A stretch of DNA of 63,295 bases, the filler included, from Aduncisulcus paluster (taxonomy: Eukaryota): assembly GCA_024181965.1 (NCBI GenBank). It is 7 parts of 7 records of this genome, joined end to end, with 100 filler letters (N's around TTAATTAATTAA, not from the genome) between each part and the next. Parts side by side here need not be neighbours in the genome. Positions count along the whole stretch, not along the records: positions 1 to 25,541 come from BQXS01000140.1; 6 more parts are not named here. One strand, given 5' to 3'. Positions 8,507-52,923 of the stretch are shown one piece after another (position 1 is the stretch's first letter; every line of letters starts with the position of its first letter). Below the pieces are notes generated by a model. It searched no databases and was not told where the DNA came from. It saw only the letters and a program-made list of their open reading frames with translations. The position numbers and the translations under genes are program-made.

Positions 8507-10317
8507 ATGAGTTCACGGAGAATTGTGGTTCCAGTTCCCGATCGCCAATTTAGCCAAAAATGCTCACAATTTTGGGAGCATTATGTTTCTGAATGTTATA
8601 AATGCTCCGGAAAGATTTTAGGAATCATTGAAAGAGAGTGCCGTGAAGCTTCGACTCATAACAGGCTTATCTCTCTTGATCTCTCCTATTCTCAACTTCA
8701 CCATGGTGATATTTTAGCTATAGTTAAGACCATACTCACCTATGATATTGTTAAATCTGTTGATTTATCCGGAAATGGAATTTCGCCAAAAACAATGAGC
8801 CTTGTTTCTCGGCTGCTTCACGGAGGAGGTACTTTAGAAATAATTAAGATGAAAGGATGTGGACTTGATCAAACCCATATGAAAGCGTTTTCCACAGCTG
8901 CAATCAAGAAAGATCAAGTCGCTGCAAAAAACTTGGATTTTTCGAGCAACAAGATCGATAAAGTTGCCTGTATAGAATTGTGTCCATTCCTTGAATCTCC
9001 TACATGCTCATTGATTTGTCTTAATCTCTCACAGAATCCTTGTAAAGATGCTGGTGCCAAAGCCATTCTTCGTGCCGTTTCTTCAGGAACTACCCAAGAA
9101 GTTATCCTCCAAAAGATCAATGCTGGTTGTTCTACTGCCAATGCTCTCCAAATTTTATTCAGTACCGGTCGAGCTTTCTCCGTCGACTTGCGATTCAATT
9201 CTATCTCGAACGATCTCCTCACTAGGGTCAAGAAATGTGAATTGGCCCGTAGAAAAGAGCTTGAGAAGCGTGTTGAAAGTGGTTTTGGTCTTTCCATGGC
9301 AATTCCAGACTCCAGGATGACTGAGATCCACCCCAGCGAGATGAGTGAGAAATCCACTGATGATGACTTGCATCCTACAGACCTTACTGGCGCTAAAACA
9401 CTCCATACAGTTCCCTCTGAAGGTGATTTGGATGCCGCATTCACTCAGAACACCATAATGTTGAAAGATGTGAAACAGAACTTCAAGAAGCTTGAAGAAG
9501 ACATTCTCAAGTGTAATGGCATCCATTCCTGCAAGATACCTAAGATTCCTCAATCGTTCTTTGCCTCCCTCGCCACTATTTCTCCTGCTGGTCTTTTGGA
9601 CTCTTTGAGTATCTTGTGTCGCTACACTCGTCGTACTTTGGCTCATTTGGAGACTCTTGAGGCTGAAAAGGACAAGAAAAACAAAGAAATAGATGCCATG
9701 GTTAAGGAAAAAGAAGAATCTAAGCAATTGGCAAAAACCAAGGACACATATATGACTCGGATGAAAGATGAAAATGATGCCCTCCGAAGAAAAGTTCAAA
9801 AGCTTATAGAAGAGAAGGAAAAGGAGGAAGAGAAAGACGAGAAGCTCGAAAGATTGAGGAGATTACAAGCCCACCAAACCAAGGAAATTGACGAGCTCAA
9901 ACTCAAACTTCATCACCAGTCGATGGCCAGACTCAAAGATGAGAAGATGCAAGACGAGTGGGAAGTGGAAGAATGCATTCAGTTGATAAGGCTGAGAAGC
10001 AGAAAACAAAGGAGAGGTTTTTGGCTCAACAGAGAATTGAAATGGAGAGGAAGAAAATGGAACAATCGAGGAGCGAGACTGACCATCAACACCTTGAAAA
10101 CATGAGTAATGATGATTTGACCGTCGATAGAAAGGTCGTATTTGCTGATTACGACACTCTTGACACCGAAGAGAAACACTTTGACGTTGGAGAGATAAAA
10201 ATAGAGGAGGACGAGGAAGAAGAGGAAGAGGAAGAGGAGGAAGAGGTCAAAGATGAAGAGGATAGCGAAGAAGATGGTGTTGTTATCAAGAAAAGCACTA
10301 ATAGTCCAGTCGTTTAA
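8507..10317 (+). CDS. Ribonuclease-inhibitor-like LRR protein with C-terminal coiled coil and acidic tail; apparent 1-nt frameshift near 9940-9985
   Basis: LRR motifs LDLSYSQL, VDLSGNGI, LDFSSNKI, LNLSQNPC, VDLRFNSI, then K/E-rich heptads. The natural-looking tail (DKAEKQKTKERF...EEEEE...NSPVV*) lies in the -1 frame (ORF 9958..10317). First ATG is at 8507. Confidence 0.8.
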
Positions 10318-10585
10318 AGAAGAGAGAAAGATGGGTTGTCTTGGACAATATTTGTAGTCTAACTAACTATTGTGACTTTATTGTTTTGGCTCTGAGATGA
10401 GCTATTTTGAAAGGAAATTCTCTTCCCTCATAATTCAATTCGATGAGATAAATAAAGTTAGTTATTTTGGAGAGGCCACAGGAAATTGAATTCGATCAAA
10501 TGATAATTGGGGTTATTCGGGACGAAACAGTTATGACAATTTGAATATTTTTTATTTATAAAATAATTCACAAAACAACCTTGTT

Positions 10586-10658
10586 GAGGGTGTAGCTCAG
10601 TTGGTAGAGCGTTCGGCTCCAGTCCGATTGGTCGGGGGTTCAAGTCCCTTCGTCCTCA
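10586..10658 (+). tRNA. tRNA-Trp(CCA) with 4-bp anticodon stem (U27:U43 mismatch)
   Basis: Cloverleaf: acceptor GAGGGTG/CGTCCTC, D arm GCTC-AGTTGGTA-GAGC, anticodon arm TTCGG-CTCCAGT-CCGAT (CCA at 10619..10621), T arm GGGGG-TTCAAGT-CCCTT, discriminator A. No intron and no encoded CCA end. Confidence 0.96.
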
Positions 10659-10660
10659 TA

Positions 10661-10677
10661 TTTTAAATTTTTTTTTT
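10661..10677 (+). terminator. Pol III oligo-T terminator of tRNA-Trp
   Basis: TTTT-AAA-T10 immediately after the discriminator base. Confidence 0.7.
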
Positions 10678-10890
10678 ATTGGGGGAATTTTTCAGCTTTT
10701 GGATGAATTACGCGCTAAATTTTAAGAAATTGAATTTATTAAAGCGAAAAATGGAAAAATATAATTGAAAAAGTTACATTTAGCAAAACAGGGAAAAGTC
10801 GACGTGTATGCGAATTAACAGGAAAATATTTCGGAAATATCAATAAAAAGTGGNNNNNNNNNNNNNNNNNNNNCACAAAACAACCTTGTT

Positions 10891-10963
10891 GAGGGTGTAG
10901 CTCAGTTGGTAGAGCGTTCGGCTCCAGTCCGATTGGTCGGGGGTTCAAGTCCCTTCGTCCTCA
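10891..10963 (+). tRNA. Second identical tRNA-Trp(CCA), probably an assembly duplicate
   Basis: Lies in the gap-flank duplication 10569..10853 = 10874..11159, which differs only in the length of one T run. Confidence 0.5.
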
Positions 10964-11168
10964 TATTTTAAATTTTTTTTTTTATTGGGGGAATTTTTCA
11001 GCTTTTGGATGAATTACGCGCTAAATTTTAAGAAATTGAATTTATTAAAGCGAAAAATGGAAAAATATAATTGAAAAAGTTACATTTAGCAAAACAGGGA
11101 AAAGTCGACGTGTATGCGAATTAACAGGAAAATATTTCGGAAATATCAATAAAAAGTGGGATATATTC

Positions 11169-17654: not shown

Positions 17655-20600
17655 ATGACAGAAACATTATCAAGAGATGTATATCAAATAGAAATCGATG
17701 AACATTTATTTATCCGGGAACCCAGTGGGAATTCATTTGGTTTTACACATGTTGGAATCATACCAGAGATACAGAAAGACCCTGTCCAAATGTTATTCTT
17801 ATTATGTGGATATTCAAATAGAACTGAGTTAGAACATCCAATGGTTAAAAAGGTTGTCGTAGAAATGCTTAAATTTGTCGAGAAGTGCCAAGCTGATAAA
17901 TATCCTAATATTATTCCCGTTCTTGGAGTTGTTGAGGCAAAAATCACTTCTAAGACTGGTAAAAAGCCTTATTATGCTCTTGGACTTATTAAATATGAAT
18001 CTGTTGGATTTTTAATTGATGTTATTGCTGCTTGGAAACGAATTGGAGATTATGAGGTTTGTGTTAAGGCCCTTCAGCAGGCAGCAATTTGTTTGTTCGA
18101 TTTTCATCAACAAGATATTATTCATGGTTTTATTGGCCCCCGATCCTTTGTAGTGGTGGAAGAGTTTGGAGGTAAAAAAGAGTTTTCAAAATATTTCCAT
18201 GATGCCAGACACGAAGAGCCAAGTGATACTTTTTGTCTTAGTTCACGTGAATCTGAGGTAGTTTCATCCTCTGAAGATGATGGACCAACATCTACCTGTC
18301 CATTCTTCTATGTGTGTCTTGGCGACTATTTCCCTTCAGCTCTGCGGCATTCAATTATTCAATTACAAATATTTTCAACGTTAGGCCCAAATACTCCGAG
18401 ATTAGTCCCTAATGCTATCATGGATCCCCTGGCAGTAACAGTGTTCTCTTCTCCAGAACAATTGCGTGGTGAAATTGCCTCGAAGCGTAGTGATGTTTAT
18501 TCCTTTGGTATTTTAACTTTTGTTGCAGCCACAGGACATCTTCCTCATCAATACAACCCAGCCGTAAAATCATTAATAGGAGCCGTTTCCCAGGAAGGTA
18601 TACAGCGTGATTATGTCCATCATTTATTCAGATATGCTCACCCTGCTACCATTGATCTTCAACAGCAAAGTCTCTTCGCTGAGATTGGAAAGAACTCAAG
18701 TCAGTTAGCCACCTCATCAAGCCTCGGTCCACTTGTTGCCGGTGAAAGTACTAGAACCGGATCCCACAAGACTCTACATACGGGGGGTGATGGAACACCT
18801 CCCCTTGAGAAGCCTGATCAAGTATCTATTGGAAAGGGAATGGAAGAGACTGATCTTACTGATGATGCTCATCCTCAGCCTGGTCGTACACTTCAAGGTT
18901 CTCTTGATGTTCCCACTCTGAATATTAAAACTATTGCTTCCAAAATAGATGATCCTCCAATCTGTTCTTCAGGATGCAGCGCCTCACGCTCTCTTGCAGA
19001 CTCTGGCCGAATTGGTCAATCACCTTTCCCCGTCTCATATATGTCTCTCACCTCTCCCACGATGTCTTCCCTTTTCTCAGCCTTAAGTTTCTTTGTTCTC
19101 ACCATGTCGTCCTCTAATCACTTCCCTCGTCTCCATATATCCTCATATCATTCACCCCTTGTCCCTGCTCTGGCTAGGATTTATAGCAGCACTGTCAAAC
19201 ACTTCCCTCAGAACCGTGTGTCCACCGAGACATGTGTGGGGATGTTCACGATGACAGACGATGCCAGTCCACGTGTTAGAAGGGCAGAGAACTCATCAAG
19301 TCCCCGTGGAAACTCCCGTCGTGGTGCTGTCCATGAAATGAAACGGATATCAAGCTCTGGCAGTCTTCAACGCATCAAGGTCAAAGCTATCTCGAGTGAA
19401 CACTCGGAAGGCGATGTTACAGACATTTCCAACACTCTTAATGATGTGACTCCCTCAGTCATGACTCCAGTTGAACCCACAGGCCAGGTTGTGACTCCTT
19501 TCTCGACTCCAGAGACTCCTTCGACCCATCCCCATAGAGGGAGCTGTAGCAGTAATAGTAACCCTGACTTGAGCGATGAAGGTACTTCCGATGCACTCAA
19601 ACATAGATCCACTGTCGATAAGGGCGATAATCAACAGATGCCCGATGGGAAAGTGGAGTCAACTTCACGTGTTGATGCTTCCCTTGACCCCACATTGGTG
19701 AAAGGCGTAGAATTACAAGTAGATTCGGCCAGTGTCAATCACGACCGTGAGGAGACAAGTGCAATCGTTACCCCTGCTCTTGTCGATGAGCCAAGAGAGT
19801 TTATTTCGTATGAGAGTGAAGACAGTGACAACGATGGAGATTCTGCAGATATTCGGGTCATTTCAGTTGATACTGATGGGCAACAGGGCGACGGATCTGC
19901 CCAGGTTTCTCTGGTGAAAGATAAAGATGATGATCTTACAATCGATATTCCCGGTGATGAAACAAACATTTCATCGCCCAAGAAGGACACTGCAATTCAC
20001 CCTGAACATCCTTTCGATCAGCAATATCAGGATGGGGATGACCACAAGGACGATGCTCTGTTGCATCCTGCAGAAGGCTCTATTGACATTTCAATTGAGG
20101 ACAGGGATGACATGCATGCGGAGATGCAATTCAGTGATTCAGGAGAAGAGGAAGAAGTTGAAGAAGATGCAGAAGAGGAGGTCGAGGAGACATTGATGGA
20201 AAGGGCTCAGAAACATTGGGCTTTCCTAAGTACAAAACCCATTCACTCCTCCTTGCATCGTGGTGAGCGTCGTATCGATGACCAGGCTTGTGTTATGTTC
20301 AATAGCACGATATATGTTGTTGGAGAGAACGTAGGCTTATCTGCCGGATTATTAGGACAGGATGAATATGAAGAAGAAGAGGAGGAGGAAGAGGATGAGT
20401 ACACGGAGAGCTCAGACATTACCGAAAAGGCGAGACGGTTCTCTATCTATCGCTCCAGCATATCGGATGATCTCTGCAAGCATCAATTCAAGCCTATCCT
20501 TCAGCCTGATGGAGATGACGATGACATTACCTCATCGACAACGCATTTCTCTCAATCGTGTGCTGAGAACCGTTTCTTTGTATCAAAGTTCTTAGCACCA

Positions 20601-22028
20601 AGCAGCAAACTAAAGAAGGCTGTCCCGTCACGTTGTTCCGTAACTAATTCAACAGAGTCTTTTATTTTCTCTGGACTTGACTCTGGTCATATCTTGATGT
20701 ATCCCAATACTCCTTCATATTCGACTGTCCTTTCCCATCTTACTGCTCAAATTGTTATGGCATACGCAACTCAAGACGAGGGAGTTAAGAAGCTTGCTTG
20801 TCCCATGTTCAAGTCTAAATCATGCCATGTCGATGCTAATAATTTCAAGAGTGCTGATATATTCTCGATGGCGTTTCCTTTGGCTCCTTATTTGTCTGTC
20901 CCCGTAAACTATTTCTCCAAAACTTTGCCTACCCTGGATCCAGGGATCTCTGCGGCTGAGCTTCTTTCTCACGCTATTTATAAATCTTATTCACACACTG
21001 GTTTCTTCCCTCGGCCCTCTTTCTTCAAACCGATCGGTCGTAACCGTGTCTCAAGGTATGCCATCACCAGTATGGATGAGAGTGCTGGAGTTCTGGCAAT
21101 TGGTGACAGCCATGGAGTTGTGAATGTATATGGTCTTGATTACAAGGGAAAGTCCGGTTCAACCGGTGATGTTGCCGGTATGACGTCTGGAAGTAGTTCT
21201 TCAGCCTCTGAGGAAGGAGATCTTTTATCCCCCTATGACATGGTTGAGAAAGAAAAGATCACATCTCAGTATAATTATGCCATGTTCAGGGAGAAGATCA
21301 GTGCTTCTGAGGATCGGGAAACGATTGGAATTATTCAGAAGAACTCGATTGCCCCAACGATGATTAAACTCTCTCAAGTGATTCACACCTCAACGGTGTA
21401 TGATCTTTTCCTTGGGCTGAACTTCCTTGTTACATGCTCGAAAGATGGTGTTGTCAGGGGATACAATCGCACAGATTGGGAACAGAGTATGGAGTTTTGT
21501 GGGCATAAGAAGGCTGTGTTGTGCTGTGATCATTATAGGAATTTGCTCATATCTGGGTCTGCTGACCACAAATGCATGCTATGGGATGTTACAAGACAGG
21601 GGATGGGAGGAGACACCGACAGTAATAATGGAGCTGCATTGTCACACACTTCCGAGCATACCCGTTCGATCTTATCCAAACATGAAGCTCGTGTCCGTGA
21701 TGTCTGTTTTGGAAAGGATGGATCCCTCGTTGCTGCCGCCATTGGGGATGGAACTATCAGTATTCGAGACGTTAGAAGATCCGTCAAAGATCCCTTGTTC
21801 AACGAGAGTGTCCACTCCAAGTCTTCAAGTGGGGTTGGATTTGGGTCTAACTTTTTATTCACAAGCGGATACGATGGCCACGTCTGTGTGTTTGATCTTC
21901 GAAGTGCCGCAACTCCAATCAGCAAGGTGAAGGTTACCCCTAATCAAATCTGTTCGATGAAATTGAAGGGAAGGCGTGTGTACTGTACGGATACTGACGG
22001 AGCTCTTAGTCTATTGGAATGGGCTTGA
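17655..22028 (+). CDS. N-terminal pseudokinase, long acidic/Ser-rich linker, C-terminal WD40 repeats
   Basis: Kinase-like IIHGFIGPRSFVV, VCLGDY, SSPEQLRGEIASKRSDVYSFGIL. WD40 motifs LVTCSKDGVVRGY, GHKKAVLC...ISGSADHKCMLWD, LFTSGYDGHVCVFD. Ends with TGA. Confidence 0.88.
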   Translation: MTETLSRDVYQIEIDEHLFIREPSGNSFGFTHVGIIPEIQKDPVQMLFLLCGYSNRTELEHPMVKKVVVEMLKFVEKCQADKYPNIIPVLGVVEAKITSKTGKKPYYALGLIKYESVGFLIDVIAAWKRIGDYEVCVKALQQAAICLFDFHQQDIIHGFIGPRSFVVVEEFGGKKEFSKYFHDARHEEPSDTFCLSSRESEVVSSSEDDGPTSTCPFFYVCLGDYFPSALRHSIIQLQIFSTLGPNTPRLVPNAIMDPLAVTVFSSPEQLRGEIASKRSDVYSFGILTFVAATGHLPHQYNPAVKSLIGAVSQEGIQRDYVHHLFRYAHPATIDLQQQSLFAEIGKNSSQLATSSSLGPLVAGESTRTGSHKTLHTGGDGTPPLEKPDQVSIGKGMEETDLTDDAHPQPGRTLQGSLDVPTLNIKTIASKIDDPPICSSGCSASRSLADSGRIGQSPFPVSYMSLTSPTMSSLFSALSFFVLTMSSSNHFPRLHISSYHSPLVPALARIYSSTVKHFPQNRVSTETCVGMFTMTDDASPRVRRAENSSSPRGNSRRGAVHEMKRISSSGSLQRIKVKAISSEHSEGDVTDISNTLNDVTPSVMTPVEPTGQVVTPFSTPETPSTHPHRGSCSSNSNPDLSDEGTSDALKHRSTVDKGDNQQMPDGKVESTSRVDASLDPTLVKGVELQVDSASVNHDREETSAIVTPALVDEPREFISYESEDSDNDGDSADIRVISVDTDGQQGDGSAQVSLVKDKDDDLTIDIPGDETNISSPKKDTAIHPEHPFDQQYQDGDDHKDDALLHPAEGSIDISIEDRDDMHAEMQFSDSGEEEEVEEDAEEEVEETLMERAQKHWAFLSTKPIHSSLHRGERRIDDQACVMFNSTIYVVGENVGLSAGLLGQDEYEEEEEEEEDEYTESSDITEKARRFSIYRSSISDDLCKHQFKPILQPDGDDDDITSSTTHFSQSCAENRFFVSKFLAPSSKLKKAVPSRCSVTNSTESFIFSGLDSGHILMYPNTPSYSTVLSHLTAQIVMAYATQDEGVKKLACPMFKSKSCHVDANNFKSADIFSMAFPLAPYLSVPVNYFSKTLPTLDPGISAAELLSHAIYKSYSHTGFFPRPSFFKPIGRNRVSRYAITSMDESAGVLAIGDSHGVVNVYGLDYKGKSGSTGDVAGMTSGSSSSASEEGDLLSPYDMVEKEKITSQYNYAMFREKISASEDRETIGIIQKNSIAPTMIKLSQVIHTSTVYDLFLGLNFLVTCSKDGVVRGYNRTDWEQSMEFCGHKKAVLCCDHYRNLLISGSADHKCMLWDVTRQGMGGDTDSNNGAALSHTSEHTRSILSKHEARVRDVCFGKDGSLVAAAIGDGTISIRDVRRSVKDPLFNESVHSKSSSGVGFGSNFLFTSGYDGHVCVFDLRSAATPISKVKVTPNQICSMKLKGRRVYCTDTDGALSLLEWA

Positions 22029-25541: not shown

Positions 25542-25641
25542 NNNNNNNNNNNNNNNNNNNNNNNNNNNNNNNNNNNNNNNNNNNNTTAATTAATTAANNN
25601 NNNNNNNNNNNNNNNNNNNNNNNNNNNNNNNNNNNNNNNNN
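25542..25641. other. Artificial contig linker (also at 31116..31215, 46211..46310, 54568..54667, 56180..56279, 59026..59125)
   Basis: N44-TTAATTAATTAA-N44, a six-frame stop spacer, identical at all six sites. Confidence 0.98.
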
Positions 25642-30888: not shown

Positions 30889-31215
30889 TTTAATGGTATT
30901 TTCCCTTTTAGCTGTCCAAATCGATAGATAAATCTAATCTCTTAGTTCCACCATACTATGACATTTTAAAGAAATAAAACATTAATTTTATAAAATAATT
31001 AATTTAAAATTCATATTGTATAATTTATTAAAATGTCGATTACCTTCACTTTTCGGTGAGCTCCCTTACCTTTCCCTTGTTGGTGAAACGGTCACTTTTC
31101 ATGAAACCAGCAATANNNNNNNNNNNNNNNNNNNNNNNNNNNNNNNNNNNNNNNNNNNNTTAATTAATTAANNNNNNNNNNNNNNNNNNNNNNNNNNNNN
31201 NNNNNNNNNNNNNNN

Positions 31216-46210: not shown

Positions 46211-46340
46211 NNNNNNNNNNNNNNNNNNNNNNNNNNNNNNNNNNNNNNNNNNNNTTAATTAATTAANNNNNNNNNNNNNNNNNNNNNNNNNNNNNNNNNN
46301 NNNNNNNNNNTATTAATAAAACAAAATAATAAACAATAAT

Positions 46341-47325: not shown

Positions 47326-49921
47326 TCATTCATCCTCAGTCCTAAAACTTGTGGAACTCTGTTTGTGCATGGTCTTCTCAGCAACACTGAAATTTCTCAT
47401 TCTGACAAGTTTGTCCAGATCCATAAAAGCACTGCTTCCTCTTCCCTTTGTCATCCCTCTCACCTCATCGACAAAGGATTGCCTAAAGACAAGCTCATGA
47501 CGTTGGATGGGGACCTTGGCGAACAATTGGGCAATGATTCCAATGAAAACGACGGGAATGGCAGTGAGATAAGCGTAATAACCCTTAGAATCATCAGTTG
47601 GGAATGTTCTTGCAAAGGTGTATTTTGTAACGATGGGATCATATGTGATAGGATTGAAAGCAATAATGGGATCAATAACGGGGTAGTAAAGATCTTGGAA
47701 GGCCTCAAAAGTGTAACCAATCAGAAGGGTAGGAACGGCACGACCAATGGAATTACCGAGCTGGGAAATACCGGTCACAGAACCACGGTTATCAGGCAAT
47801 GAGAAGAGAGAGAGCATTCCAAGGTAAGCAGCCTGGGCACAGGCCTCAGAGAAAGAACCAACGGCACTATAAACAGCAGTCGGCCACACATTCTCAACAA
47901 GGGGCTTTGTGATACCTTGAAGGAGCAAAGCCAAGAGGTTGAAAACGTGAGAGAAGAAGGTCAAGTTCAATTCTCCAGCCCTCTTGGTCATCCAGGGACC
48001 GACAACAAAGGAGAAAACAGTCATGGAACCGTATACAACAAGGGCGTTGTAGAATTGGAAGTCTGACAACCACTTGGNNNNNNNNNNNNNNNNNNNNAAC
48101 AGCAGTCGGCCACACATTCTCAACAAGGGGCTTTGTGATACCTTGAAGGAGCAAAGCCAAGAGGTTGAAAACGTGAGAGAAGAAGGTCAAGTTCAATTCT
48201 CCAGCCCTCTTGGTCATCCAGGGACCGACAACAAAGGAGAAAACAGTCATGGAACCGTATACAACAAGGGCGTTGTAGAATTGGAAGTCTGACAACCACT
48301 TGGAGTAATCGGAACCAAAGGATTTGACATCCAGAACAGTAGGGGTACCATCACCTTGGTAACCAAAGTTTTCCCAGAGGTTAGAGAAAGGAATATCAGT
48401 CAACCAACTGAGGTTGAGGTCTCTAACAATACTGTAGGCACCAACACACATGGTGTAACCAATGAACAAGAGGACAAAGTTCTTGTTGGTGATAAGCATC
48501 TTGACAACTTGCCAGAATCCTCTATGCTTGAATTCCTTGTGTTCCTTAACAGTGGTTTCTTCTTCAGTCTTCTTGCTGGCTTGCATTTCGATGGCAGCAT
48601 CCTCAGCTTCAGGTTCCTTTTGTTTCTTCATACCAGCATGTTGAGCCTTGAGCTCTCTGTTAGCAAGAACAATAGGTGATGATTCTTTCATCCAAATCAA
48701 GGCAATGATCAAAGCAACGATACGGGAAGCCATGGAAATGAGAGCAGCGTATTTCAAAATGTTAATGTAGTCATCATCTTCAGCATCATCAGGTAAGAAG
48801 TTGTGAACAAGAGCACGGTTAACAATGTAGGAGAAAATCATTCCGATGTAGATAAATCCAGTATAAAGAATCATGGAGAGGGTACGAGCCTTGGGAGGAG
48901 CAAGATCGGCAATGCAGAGGTAACCAAGAGGAGCAATAACAGCAGCAAGTCCAGAAGCAGCACGAATACCGACTATGGCCCAATATCCTCCATCTCTTCC
49001 GTTTACCCAAACAAAGGATACATCAGTGATAGCATACCAAATCAAAATTATCACAAAAGTCCATTTACGGCCAATTCTTTCACTGATAGGACCCTGGAGG
49101 AGTACTGAAGCAAAGAATTGAACAATATTGAAGACAGATACATATAGTGTGTAGTCATTGTTTGAAATATCCCTTACATTTTCATCAGTCATCAAATTCA
49201 TGTGAACTTTAAGGTGAGTGGCAAGAGCAAGAGTGATAAGACCCAAACCAAAGGCGGCAAAAGATGCCACAATACAGTTTGCAAAAACACCAGAGTTGAA
49301 AATGGTAGGCTCGTTGAGAAGATCTTTTGACACATCACGAAGGGCAACAGTATCCTCACCATAAATCTCAGTGGCGAGAGATATTTCTTCAGGAGTAAAA
49401 TACGTAGAAACTTCTTCATCGGGAACAGGAGCAGACAAGGGAGAAGAATGAGGATACTCAAGAAGGATCCATCTGATAATATCAGCAAGTTGAATGACAA
49501 ATAAGGCATGTTGCTCAGAGGAAGAAGCGTCCAAGTCAGAAATTCTAAGAGAAGAAGCAAGAGGGTGATCAAACTTGAATCCTTCGTCAGCAGCCCATTT
49601 AAGGATGGCTTTGATGTTCTTGGTTCCAGCCTTGGTCAAAGAGGTAGGAGTTTCATCGGATGAAACAATGGCAACGCGGAATTTTTGGTCTGCAGCATTA
49701 ACAAACTTGGAAAAAAGTTCTCCATTATATAATCCGGGAAGGGGATCATAAATTTCAGAAGGTTCGGAGAAATAGGTCGTTAATTCTTGCTCTTTAGAAA
49801 ATTCACGGAAGGAAACAAACAAAAACCGACGGGCTTCAAGGTAACGGCGAGCATCATCGTGGAGCTCGAGAGAGGAGGCTTTCTTGAAAGAAAACTTCTT
49901 TTTCCAGTCAGAAAAACCCAT
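47326..49921 (-). CDS. Major facilitator superfamily transporter (MFS_1, TetA/DHA1-like) with ~210-aa soluble N-terminal extension
   Basis: Motif A LQGPISERIGRK, GIRAASGL, CIADL, WMKES, and 12 hydrophobic segments. Two ORFs join after collapsing 47872..48077 = 48098..48303. Ends with TGA. Confidence 0.9.
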
Positions 49922-50460: not shown

Positions 50461-52923
50461 ATGAAGATAGGAGCGATTCAAGATTTTGCGAATGTTACAA
50501 CTATCTCCACCCTTGAAGGATCCGAGTCCTTCATTGATGACGATGATATTATCCCTGAAAATCTCGATACTGATGGTATGGACGATAAAATCACACATCC
50601 TGGGCAATCAAAGATTGGTACTATCTTTAATATCATCAATTCCATTACCGGTGCAGGTATCCTTGCTCTTCCCTCTTCTATTGCCTCTGCTGGTATAGTT
50701 AATGGTGTGATTGGGCTTGTTTTAGGAATGGGATACTCTTTATTGTGCTATAACATGTTGAGTTTGGTTGCATCAAGAGCCAAAAAGTATACTTTCAAAG
50801 AATTAGCTGTTGAGGTTTTTGGACCTTCAATTGCTTGGATCCATGATATTTTGTTGTTTCTTTTCGTGTTTTCAATTCTTTGTGCATATGTTCTGTTTGT
50901 TGGAGACTTTTTAGGAACTCAATTCACGAATTTCATATCTGACGAGTNNNNNNNNNNNNNNNNNNNNTCTTCTATTGCCTCTGCTGGTATAGTTAATGGT
51001 GTGATTGGGCTTGTTTTAGGAATGGGATACTCTTTATTGTGCTATAACATGTTGAGTTTGGTTGCATCAAGAGCCAAAAAGTATACTTTCAAAGAATTAG
51101 CTGTTGAGGTTTTTGGACCTTCAATTGCTTGGATCCATGATATTTTGTTGTTTCTTTTCGTGTTTTCAATTCTTTGTGCATATGTTCTGTTTGTTGGAGA
51201 CTTTTTAGGAACTCAATTCACGAATTTCATATCTGACGAGTCAAGTTTATCTTTTCTTCATAACCCCATCATTGTGCGTACTGTTGTTCTTTTTTTGGTG
51301 ATGTTTCCTCTCTCTTGCCTAACCAATATTAATCTTCTCGCCTATCCCAGTGCTGGTGCTGTTTTTTGTGTTATAATCACGACATTTTATGTCCTGATCC
51401 GATGCATTCAGAAGATATCAAGTGAGGGAGTCGATTGGGATAAAGTTATCATCGGCAGTATGTCTGTTGAATCATTCAACGTATTTATTATAATATTTAT
51501 GGCTTTCGCTGCCCAATTTCAGATCCCCATTCTTTTATCGTCCATTAAAGGGACTGAGAAAGGCCGAATGAAGTCTATGAAGGAGGCCAACGGAATTGCC
51601 ATTGCATTTTGCGGAGCTGTCTACTCTCTTCTATCTTTCTCTTCCACATTGGCGTTTGGCACTGATATCAACGAAAATGTCCTTTTATCATTTCCCGCCA
51701 CTGATGTCGGAAATATTATTGCACAATTTGCAATGAGTTTTGTTGTTATTGCTTCTTATCCCCTCATTCTCTGGCCCTGTCGTTTGGCCATCTATACCGT
51801 CCTTGATGAGATTAAATACCGCTCAGAGGTGAGACGCATTAAACAGGAACTTTCGGAAACAGCCAAATCTTCCCTCCTCTCTTCTCATGGTATGAGTGGG
51901 AAGTCAACTCCCTCAACCAATCCGCACCCTGACGTTGAGGCTTCTGGTGCCCACATGCAGGAATCTCGTATCTCTCGGTTATCTTATGAGGTCTCTGATG
52001 CATCTGATCTGTTGATCCACCATGATATTGTTGACCAATCACATATTGCTAAGGATGATATTCAGAGAGAAGGGCCTGATCAATCAGTTCAGCCGCCTGC
52101 TCCACGCCGTCACCCTCAATTGGCACACTTTTCAACCGCCGCCGGGTTCATTCTCTCCCCAGCAAATATGCCCTCATCCCTCTCTCTCACATCCATCGCA
52201 GAGTTATCCGAGGAAGATGGTGCTCATCGAGGAACAATGATCCATGGTGACGGTGCGAGTATAGGCATATCTGATGCCGTTCCCACGGGTTCTCCATTGA
52301 AAACTGTGACTTCTCAAATGACAGCAACGAGTCAACGTGAGGCCAAATCAAACCATCCTGCCAAGAGGTCTCCCATGCATTTGGTGTCAAACAAACCCAT
52401 TCTCCAAGTTCCCAGTAGCACCGATATTTCCATGATAGCCAATCCGCCAGTACAATCTAATATTGAATATCCCTCTGGTGATCATCGTACCACTGGTGGA
52501 TTTGATGAAGGATTGATTGCTACCCTTGTGTTTAAGCCTGGGACAAAGATAGACTCGGAAGGAGCCTCACAAGAAGAGAAGAGATCATTTCTCGTTCACT
52601 GCACAGTTGCCCTCGGTATTTCGATTGTCGCCTGGTTAGTTGGAGTTGCTCTTCCCTCCGTCCTCGATATTTTCTCCCTATTTGGGTCAACTCTTGGATG
52701 CGCTGTGTACTTTATCCTGCCCGGAATATACTGGATTGTGATGAGTGACTATCGTGATGGAAAGCATCCAAAAGCAACCGCTGAACAATCGAGACCTGAT
52801 CTCAAAGTTAAGGAGGTTTTCCAAAAAAAGAATTCATTTGCCCTCGTTTTGATCATAGCAGGACCAATGATGTGTGCGGTTGTATTCGTGTCCACTCTTT
52901 CGAGCCTTATCAATGGCGAGTGA
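50461..52923 (+). CDS. Amino acid transporter, Aa_trans (SLC38/AVT) family, with large hydrophilic insertion
   Basis: IFNIINSITGAGILALP, LFLVMFPLSCL, MAFAAQFQIP, ASYPLILWPCR, IFSLFGSTLG..VYFILPG. 50674..50947 = 50968..51241 is a gap duplicate. Ends with TGA. Confidence 0.92.
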   Translation: MKIGAIQDFANVTTISTLEGSESFIDDDDIIPENLDTDGMDDKITHPGQSKIGTIFNIINSITGAGILALPSSIASAGIVNGVIGLVLGMGYSLLCYNMLSLVASRAKKYTFKELAVEVFGPSIAWIHDILLFLFVFSILCAYVLFVGDFLGTQFTNFISDEXXXXXXXSSIASAGIVNGVIGLVLGMGYSLLCYNMLSLVASRAKKYTFKELAVEVFGPSIAWIHDILLFLFVFSILCAYVLFVGDFLGTQFTNFISDESSLSFLHNPIIVRTVVLFLVMFPLSCLTNINLLAYPSAGAVFCVIITTFYVLIRCIQKISSEGVDWDKVIIGSMSVESFNVFIIIFMAFAAQFQIPILLSSIKGTEKGRMKSMKEANGIAIAFCGAVYSLLSFSSTLAFGTDINENVLLSFPATDVGNIIAQFAMSFVVIASYPLILWPCRLAIYTVLDEIKYRSEVRRIKQELSETAKSSLLSSHGMSGKSTPSTNPHPDVEASGAHMQESRISRLSYEVSDASDLLIHHDIVDQSHIAKDDIQREGPDQSVQPPAPRRHPQLAHFSTAAGFILSPANMPSSLSLTSIAELSEEDGAHRGTMIHGDGASIGISDAVPTGSPLKTVTSQMTATSQREAKSNHPAKRSPMHLVSNKPILQVPSSTDISMIANPPVQSNIEYPSGDHRTTGGFDEGLIATLVFKPGTKIDSEGASQEEKRSFLVHCTVALGISIVAWLVGVALPSVLDIFSLFGSTLGCAVYFILPGIYWIVMSDYRDGKHPKATAEQSRPDLKVKEVFQKKNSFALVLIIAGPMMCAVVFVSTLSSLINGE

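Follow-up and report, generated by a model that had tools for sequence, protein, structure and literature searches.

The only tryptophan tRNA found in Aduncisulcus paluster has a four-pair anticodon stem in a genome that stops at UGA

Our results show that the only host tryptophan tRNA sequence found in Aduncisulcus paluster by a DNA search, an Rfam search and two sequence patterns is a tRNA-Trp(CCA) that carries U27 opposite U43 at the top of its anticodon stem, and that UGA nevertheless remains a common stop codon in this genome. The tRNA is a structural member of the "Blastocrithidia-like" class and not a member of the UGA-recoding systems, since in-frame UGA at conserved Trp codons, the eRF1 change and a loss of UGA stops were each looked for and not found. 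We think it probable that it is an ordinary UGG decoder with a tolerated U27:U43 mismatch that is outcompeted at UGA by a canonical eRF1. The gene lies in the window, by which we mean the whole stretch of DNA that was analysed (63,295 nucleotides, filler included), and only positions 1-25541 of the window belong to its contig, C140. Where the window passes between separate contigs (25542-25641, 31116-31215, 46211-46310 and similar), two 44-N runs enclose a linker of 12 bases that has stops in every frame. The features discussed below are collected in Table 1.

Table 1. Coordinates of the tRNA-Trp gene, its elements and related features, in window positions except where a locus handle is given.
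Feature	Position	Strand	Remarks
tRNA-Trp(CCA) gene, 73 nt	10586..10658	+	no intron, no encoded CCA end; G1-C72, A73, A9, C11-G24
Anticodon arm	10612..10628	+	U27 (10612) and U43 (10628) unpaired; 28:42 to 31:39 paired (sequence, Rfam)
Anticodon CCA	10619-10621	+	followed by G37 and U38, the latter unusual
A box, an internal element of the Pol III promoter (tRNA positions 8-19)	10593..10604	+	read from sequence
B box (tRNA positions 53-61)	10638..10646	+	read from sequence
T4 and T10 runs (10661-10664, 10668-10677)	10661..10677	+	likely Pol III terminator; function presumed
Second copy of 10574-10853	10879..11159	+	tRNA at 10891-10963; behind a 20-N scaffold gap
TGA stop of 1457-aa WD40 gene (17655-22028)	22026..22028	+	genuine end
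TGA stop of MFS transporter frame	47326..47328	-	
TGA stop of amino-acid transporter (Aa_trans) gene	52921..52923	+	next in-frame stop 35 codons on
tRNA-Ser(CGA)	L193:8668-8749		27:43 open
tRNA-Met(CAT)	L061:9920-9992		27:43 open
tRNA-Asn(GTT)	L027:1501-1574		27:43 open

The tRNA-Trp gene was read from the sequence and called by both ARAGORN and Rfam RF00005, the latter at 61.2 bits (E 8.9e-13) with 27:43 as the sole non-standard pair. Sequence and alignment together confirm the four-pair stem that an earlier, sequence-only reading of this DNA had described, and the remainder of the cloverleaf, the A and B boxes and the T-run terminator, which that reading had called intact, are all present; we assigned the two boxes by their consensus. 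The cloverleaf, CCA anticodon, A73 and G1-C72 pair are those of a eukaryotic cytosolic tRNA-Trp(CCA), A73 and the anticodon being reported eukaryotic Trp identity elements (PMC9976931, in part). With its top stem pair open and the other four closed, a 7-nt anticodon loop, and A9 and G24 kept (neither the A9C nor the G24A change is present), the molecule agrees with the structural definition of the "Blastocrithidia-like" class (PMC13092985, in part), which supports the proposed architectural match to published tRNA-Trp(CCA) that has a 4-bp stem. The mismatch is adjoined by G26 and U44. The tRNA-Lys(CTT) of the same genome has the same anticodon stem, but there it is closed by A43. U38 was absent from 67 Trp-type metagenome matches (0/67; A in 62, C in 3, G in 2). 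The gene is surrounded by intron-poor eukaryotic genes. Its expression and charging with Trp are suggested by its being the sole Trp gene found; the RNA-like contigs X2 do not cover the tRNA-Trp bin and, as contigs alone, are uninformative on expression. Free folding did not return the cloverleaf (z -1.6) and is uninformative here.

Four identical copies of the gene are assembled, two in the window and one each on C11816 and C11630, according to a DNA search of the 23,235 contigs. The two window copies, on either side of the 20-N gap, are identical at 280/280 aligned bases except for one T of a T-run, and the DNA run X1 has the shorter of the two T-runs at 10973. The second copy in the window was most likely produced by duplication during assembly, and an overlap artefact of the same kind is found at a scaffold gap inside Prp8. 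Thus the earlier observation that both copies carry the mismatch is correct as far as their identity goes, but the pair is one locus written twice. A collapsed 60-nt contig of X1 spans the tRNA core at a depth of 3980 with no alternative letter, and single-copy flanks have a depth of about 1272, so that the gene is present at about three loci rather than four; X1 may be the source of the assembly, in which case it checks the assembly and not an independent isolate. One other X1 contig (depth 4.7) differs from the tRNA core at one place (position not given). The roughly three real loci all have U43, and they share an identical sequence within two different types of flank. Because all four assembled copies agree and the deep X1 contig offers neither A43 nor A27, the U:U mismatch is not an assembly error.

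The patterns used to look for other Trp genes combined the D arm with the anticodon or the anticodon with the T loop, each permitting a CCA or TCA anticodon, and the Rfam search for Trp tRNAs scored 63 of 1712 candidates. Neither of these independent patterns picked up a further Trp gene, or any Trp(UCA) gene, of the host in this fragmented assembly. Eleven further candidate loci were checked with Rfam: ten are not tRNAs, and one is a bacterial-type Trp gene with a 5-bp stem on an 812-nt contig of 60% GC. Hence, among the host Trp tRNAs recovered by these searches of a fragmented assembly, the U27:U43 form is indeed the only isodecoder, and the combination known from recoding systems, a 4-bp tRNA as the Trp decoder and no Trp(UCA) tRNA detected, is also the one seen here. 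Bacterial-type tRNAs with encoded CCA ends on the short contigs C3366, C3460, C3988 and C7005 indicate that the assembly includes bacterial contigs. A separate observation concerns an odd tRNA called as Val(TAC), located between host genes at L005:1498-1574 (C10874; also L063:2271-2347), which is 82% like the Trp tRNA over 64 bases. Its CCA end is encoded, it has A1-U72 and G73, and its anticodon stem contains a C28:C42 mismatch or bulge. The sole UCA tRNA that we found is a tRNA-Sec (L182:1501-1589, 63 bits), which lies among host-like genes, and SepSecS is present as well (L219/L220). Given these two components, UGA probably serves selenocysteine too, at programmed sites; a search for the Rdx selenoprotein found nothing, and no selenoprotein gene was identified.

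Genome-wide reassignment of UGA to Trp is very unlikely, because the conserved Trp codons of Prp8 are all TGG, the dynein frames are open and no long frame runs through a TGA. In Prp8, 53 alignment columns are at least 90% Trp in 18 homologs; the residue is Trp here in 41 of them, with TGG each time and TGA at 0/41, and the remaining 12/53 hold other residues or gaps. The 11 dynein heavy-chain matches are all free of internal stops and lie in frames that are open for 593-3623 codons. The long ORFs contain 850 TGG in 87,738 codons, though A-ending codons make up 60% of the Lys, Glu and Gln boxes. Of the ORFs with 200 or more codons, 61 end in TGA, and in no case is the frame beyond this TGA open for 99 codons or more; the sole frame among 187 ORFs that is open so far past its stop has a TAG there. 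These ORF counts come from about 2% of the assembly, namely 694 kb (overlaps included) in 118 stretches that were each read on their own; ORFs were de-duplicated by their last 30 codons and shadow ORFs removed. The stops are ORF ends rather than annotation, some of them being frameshift errors, and the stop tests would miss modest effects. The proposal that UGA is not reassigned is therefore supported by Prp8, dynein and ORF data alike. The TAG-bearing frame, a leucine-rich-repeat-like one of 449 codons on the minus strand of L074 (C11841), is broken by a single TAG and is then open for at least 99 codons; this TAG is probably a nonsense mutation or a sequence error. A split in Prp8 was considered as hidden UGA decoding and rejected, as it is a frameshift plus a gap duplication that ends in TAA (L188:7284-8071). 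Close to the N terminus, Prp8 carries long acidic insertions as well. At about 51% identity between Prp8 and its best matches, and with 11 dynein heavy-chain matches, the organism is a divergent flagellated eukaryote; searches with eRF1, Prp8 and a window transporter found no close named relative.

UGA is not reduced as a stop codon, nor is it backed by tandem stops. The ends of 150 ORFs of at least 300 codons are TAA in 81 cases, TGA in 49 and TAG in 20. The share of TGA (33%, CI 25-41%) is close to its 37% among stop triplets of the 3' flanks (315/860; p = 0.35), the flanks standing in for a close relative with a 5-bp tRNA, which would be the proper baseline. An in-frame backup stop occurs within three codons after 8/49 TGA versus 17/81 TAA stops (p = 0.65), the off-frame rate after TGA (24.5%) being above the in-frame one, and the median extension to the next stop is 9 codons after TGA versus 7 after TAA (p = 0.68). 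The depletion of TGA and excess of tandem stops that had been suggested as checks thus failed to appear. Yeast Trp-tRNA prefers UGA-A and least favours UGA-U (PMC4748822, in part). In A. paluster UGA-A is not avoided, with A at +4 after 16/49 TGA and 22/81 TAA stops (p = 0.55). The three window genes reported to end in TGA followed by T do so, but the T is not special to them, as it follows 22/49 TGA and 36/81 TAA stops (p = 1). The TGA at 22026 is a true end, because the WD40 region of the protein reaches residue 1455 of 1457; the X2 contigs extend beyond this TGA to at least 22275. We set aside the TGA of the ORF at 8507-10105 as doubtful, since X2 contigs carry an extra G behind 9970 that shifts the frame.

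The release factor is also of the canonical type. We found eRF1 at two loci, of which the contig ends leave 198 and 172 residues; they are identical in their overlap, and both retain the GTS, TASNIKS and YxCxxxF motifs. Ser64 aligns with human residue 70 and yeast residue 67, and Ser occupies this site in 119/120 of the eRF1 homologs retrieved, the remaining one not being parseable. The Ser-to-Gly/Ala change that had been put forward as a mark of weak UGA recognition is accordingly absent from both loci. In Blastocrithidia, eRF1 has Gly at this site (PMC12153298, in part), and whether the change is required is disputed: according to Swart et al. (10.1101/2023.10.09.561518) it is neither necessary nor sufficient for UGA decoding, and Ser67 coexists with translation of UGA in Plagiopyla, Amoebophrya and some karyorelicts. 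For this reason, Ser at this position weighs against UGA decoding in A. paluster without excluding it. A divergent eRF1 N-domain of 42% identity, with GTS, NIKS and YxCxxxF all altered, is encoded at L014:1426-3321 (C11118), where it is fused to an unrelated tail of at least 632 aa that has no other Pfam match.

An open 27:43 pair is not specific to Trp in this genome. It occurs in 4/24 distinct tRNA sequences, a list that is part of the full set and may include one or two rows that are not host genes: Trp and Ser(CGA) have U:U, Asn has C:U and Met has G:A, and Rfam alignments confirm the last three. The caveat that such mismatches also occur in ordinary tRNAs therefore holds here. In Ser(CGA) the U:U is likewise flanked by G26 and U44. 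C34 is present in three of these four tRNAs, which would suit the "extended superwobble" idea, in numbers too small for a test. Beyond this genome, an exact 30-nt pattern of the tRNA-Trp had no match in metagenomes, and a degenerate pattern matched 67 loci with 41 distinct Trp-type sequences, 4/41 of which have an open 27:43; these 41 are mostly archaeal-looking and do not make a eukaryote baseline. Two metagenome loci, L086:1-220 and L142:1-410, have exactly the same U27:U43 stem. Their flanks are ciliate-like, with in-frame TAA and TAG and frames that end at TGA, and give no proof that UGA is Trp; one TGA in L086 might belong to a 20-nt GT-AG intron or stand for Trp. We rejected horizontal transfer from a ciliate, as the tRNA is identical to these loci at 64/73 positions but unrelated matches reach 61.

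If the tRNA is an ordinary UGG decoder, it would be a housekeeping cytosolic tRNA-Trp that reads every UGG codon from about three loci, and its U27:U43 would stay stacked between the four Watson-Crick pairs and G26/U44. At UGA it would compete with an eRF1 of canonical stop-recognition residues and lose, with so little readthrough that stop-codon use would show no trace of it. A reporter may yet reveal that it reads UGA better, by a few-fold, than a version with five pairs, an extra reading that the organism most likely does not use and has not visibly adapted to; a few percent of readthrough could pass without a genomic footprint. In 2677 standard-code bacterial genomes (about 6.5%), the only tRNA-Trp has a 4-bp stem, and all of them stop at UGA (PMC13092985, in part). 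What speaks against a tolerated variant is that the mismatch is fixed at all loci. UGA-decoding protists have a pyrimidine:pyrimidine mismatch at the same position, C:U in Blastocrithidia (PMC13092985, in part) and U:C in Amoebophrya and Condylostoma (10.1101/2024.09.05.611473, in part), and the standard-code relatives of recoders, Obscuromonas, Stentor and Fabrea, have 5-bp stems. Unpairing raised UGA readthrough about 7-fold in yeast (10.1101/2023.06.19.543857, in part) and about 2.5-fold in E. coli, with an effect that depends on the mismatch (PMC13092985, in part), and on this account we keep open a role as a natural weak suppressor, in which the open stem makes UGA leaky to Trp at the percent level and yields C-terminal extensions or a tRNA-first step of reassignment. 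Such a role is possible, if rather improbable. It would fit the structural definition of the class (PMC13092985, in part), the fact that all Trp-tRNA would carry the open pair if the sole gene found supplies it, the U28:A42 pair, which obeys the pyrimidine:purine rule tied to readthrough (10.1101/2023.06.19.543857, in part), and the identical stem of L086 and L142. It is opposed by TGA stops that are neither depleted nor backed up, by the acceptance of UGA-A, by the canonical eRF1 and by the frames of L086 and L142, which end at TGA; the literature consulted, in the parts available, contained no test of a U:U mismatch, and the ciliate tRNA sequences of Swart et al. might show a U:U case. A stronger version, a pre-reassignment state in which the sole Trp tRNA is a competent UGA reader that changed before eRF1 and the coding sequences, with Trp-tRNA, Sec-tRNA and eRF1 competing for UGA and a third of gene ends subject to measurable readthrough by Trp, seems doubtful to us. 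The leaky UGA or incipient reassignment suggested from the sequence alone thus found no support in the genomic tests (eRF1, TGA use, tandem stops and Prp8), although low-level readthrough is compatible with all of them.

The mature tRNA could also behave as if its stem had five pairs, through modification (e.g., pseudouridine at 27) or editing together with stacking on G26 and U44. The same G26/U44 setting in Ser(CGA) fits this idea, as do simulations in which unpinned pairs often keep hydrogen bonds and mismatch-dependent effects (PMC13092985, in part), but bacterial 4-bp tRNAs showed no stem-restoring editing (same source, in part), and we regard this explanation as unlikely. That UGA is already reassigned or ambiguous, read as Trp inside genes and as a stop at their ends as in Condylostoma and karyorelicts, would be suggested by the architecture of the tRNA alone; with no TGA among the 41 Prp8 Trp codons, 11/11 dynein matches open and no long frame passing through TGA, it is highly improbable. 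Equally hard to credit, and if anything more so, is a pseudogene or assembly error with a 5-bp Trp tRNA elsewhere. The fragmentation of the assembly and the scoring of 63 of 1712 candidates leave some room for it, and neither pattern would catch a gene that has an intron and a differing D arm; three identical loci with two flank types, read support and the non-tRNA or bacterial-type nature of the other candidates stand against it.

The ordinary UGG decoder that we favor can be set beside the known systems. With the 4-bp tRNA-Trp of recoding protists it shares the CCA anticodon, the pyrimidine:pyrimidine top pair, the 7-nt loop and the failure to find a Trp(UCA) tRNA; as in B. nonstop and C. 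magnum, the 4-bp form is the sole Trp tRNA, and as in Blastocrithidia, Sec machinery exists alongside it. It differs from these protists, insofar as the partly available sources describe them, in having U:U rather than C:U or U:C, in that no in-frame UGA was found at Trp sites and UGA is a common true stop, and, relative to Blastocrithidia, in an eRF1 without Ser70Gly. A closer parallel in function is provided by the standard-code bacteria of Fakih et al. 2026 (PMC13092985, in part), whose sole Trp tRNA is of the 4-bp form and reads UGG while UGA stays a stop. Unlike in those bacteria, the gene is nuclear and eukaryotic and its competitor is eRF1 rather than RF2; UGA use is lower in 13/19 bacterial orders (same source, in part), whereas no reduction is seen here against the flank baseline. 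Paramecium biaurelia (10.1101/2023.10.09.561518) is likewise a eukaryote that stops at UGA and has a 4-bp Trp tRNA, but there it concerns at least one of eight genes in a ciliate with UAR as Gln, whereas here it concerns every copy under the standard code.

Nuclear 4-bp Trp tRNAs have been reported in the recoders Blastocrithidia, Condylostoma, Blepharisma, Loxodes and Amoebophrya sp. ex Karlodinium (10.1101/2023.10.09.561518; for the last also 10.1101/2024.09.05.611473, in part), and a commentary calls the 4-bp tRNA-Trp unique among eukaryotes (PMC10196215, in part). A description of UAG reassignment in fornicates makes no mention of tRNAs in its available part (PMC9161772). In the literature searched we found no report that a eukaryote under the standard code has Trp tRNAs of the 4-bp form alone; Kachale et al. 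2023 may survey more widely. What ties the 4-bp stem to UGA recoding in eukaryotes is a small number of recoders and their relatives with 5-bp stems. Since UGA is recoded in all reported eukaryotes whose Trp tRNAs are solely of the 4-bp form, as far as the partly available sources go, and A. paluster does not recode it, this organism tests the sufficiency of the short stem: either the short stem is insufficient, or U:U is not equivalent to C:U or U:C, and both call for caution when the tRNA is the sole basis for predicting recoding. Alternatively, a leaky UGA is tolerated in A. paluster, and this, if true, would reveal in which order the steps of codon reassignment occur. If open stems prove common in standard-code eukaryotes, A. 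paluster would be an ordinary case; if it stands alone, it would be a key counterexample. Collectively, the tRNA-Trp of A. paluster is most likely a variant that the organism tolerates and that serves as a useful counterexample from nature.
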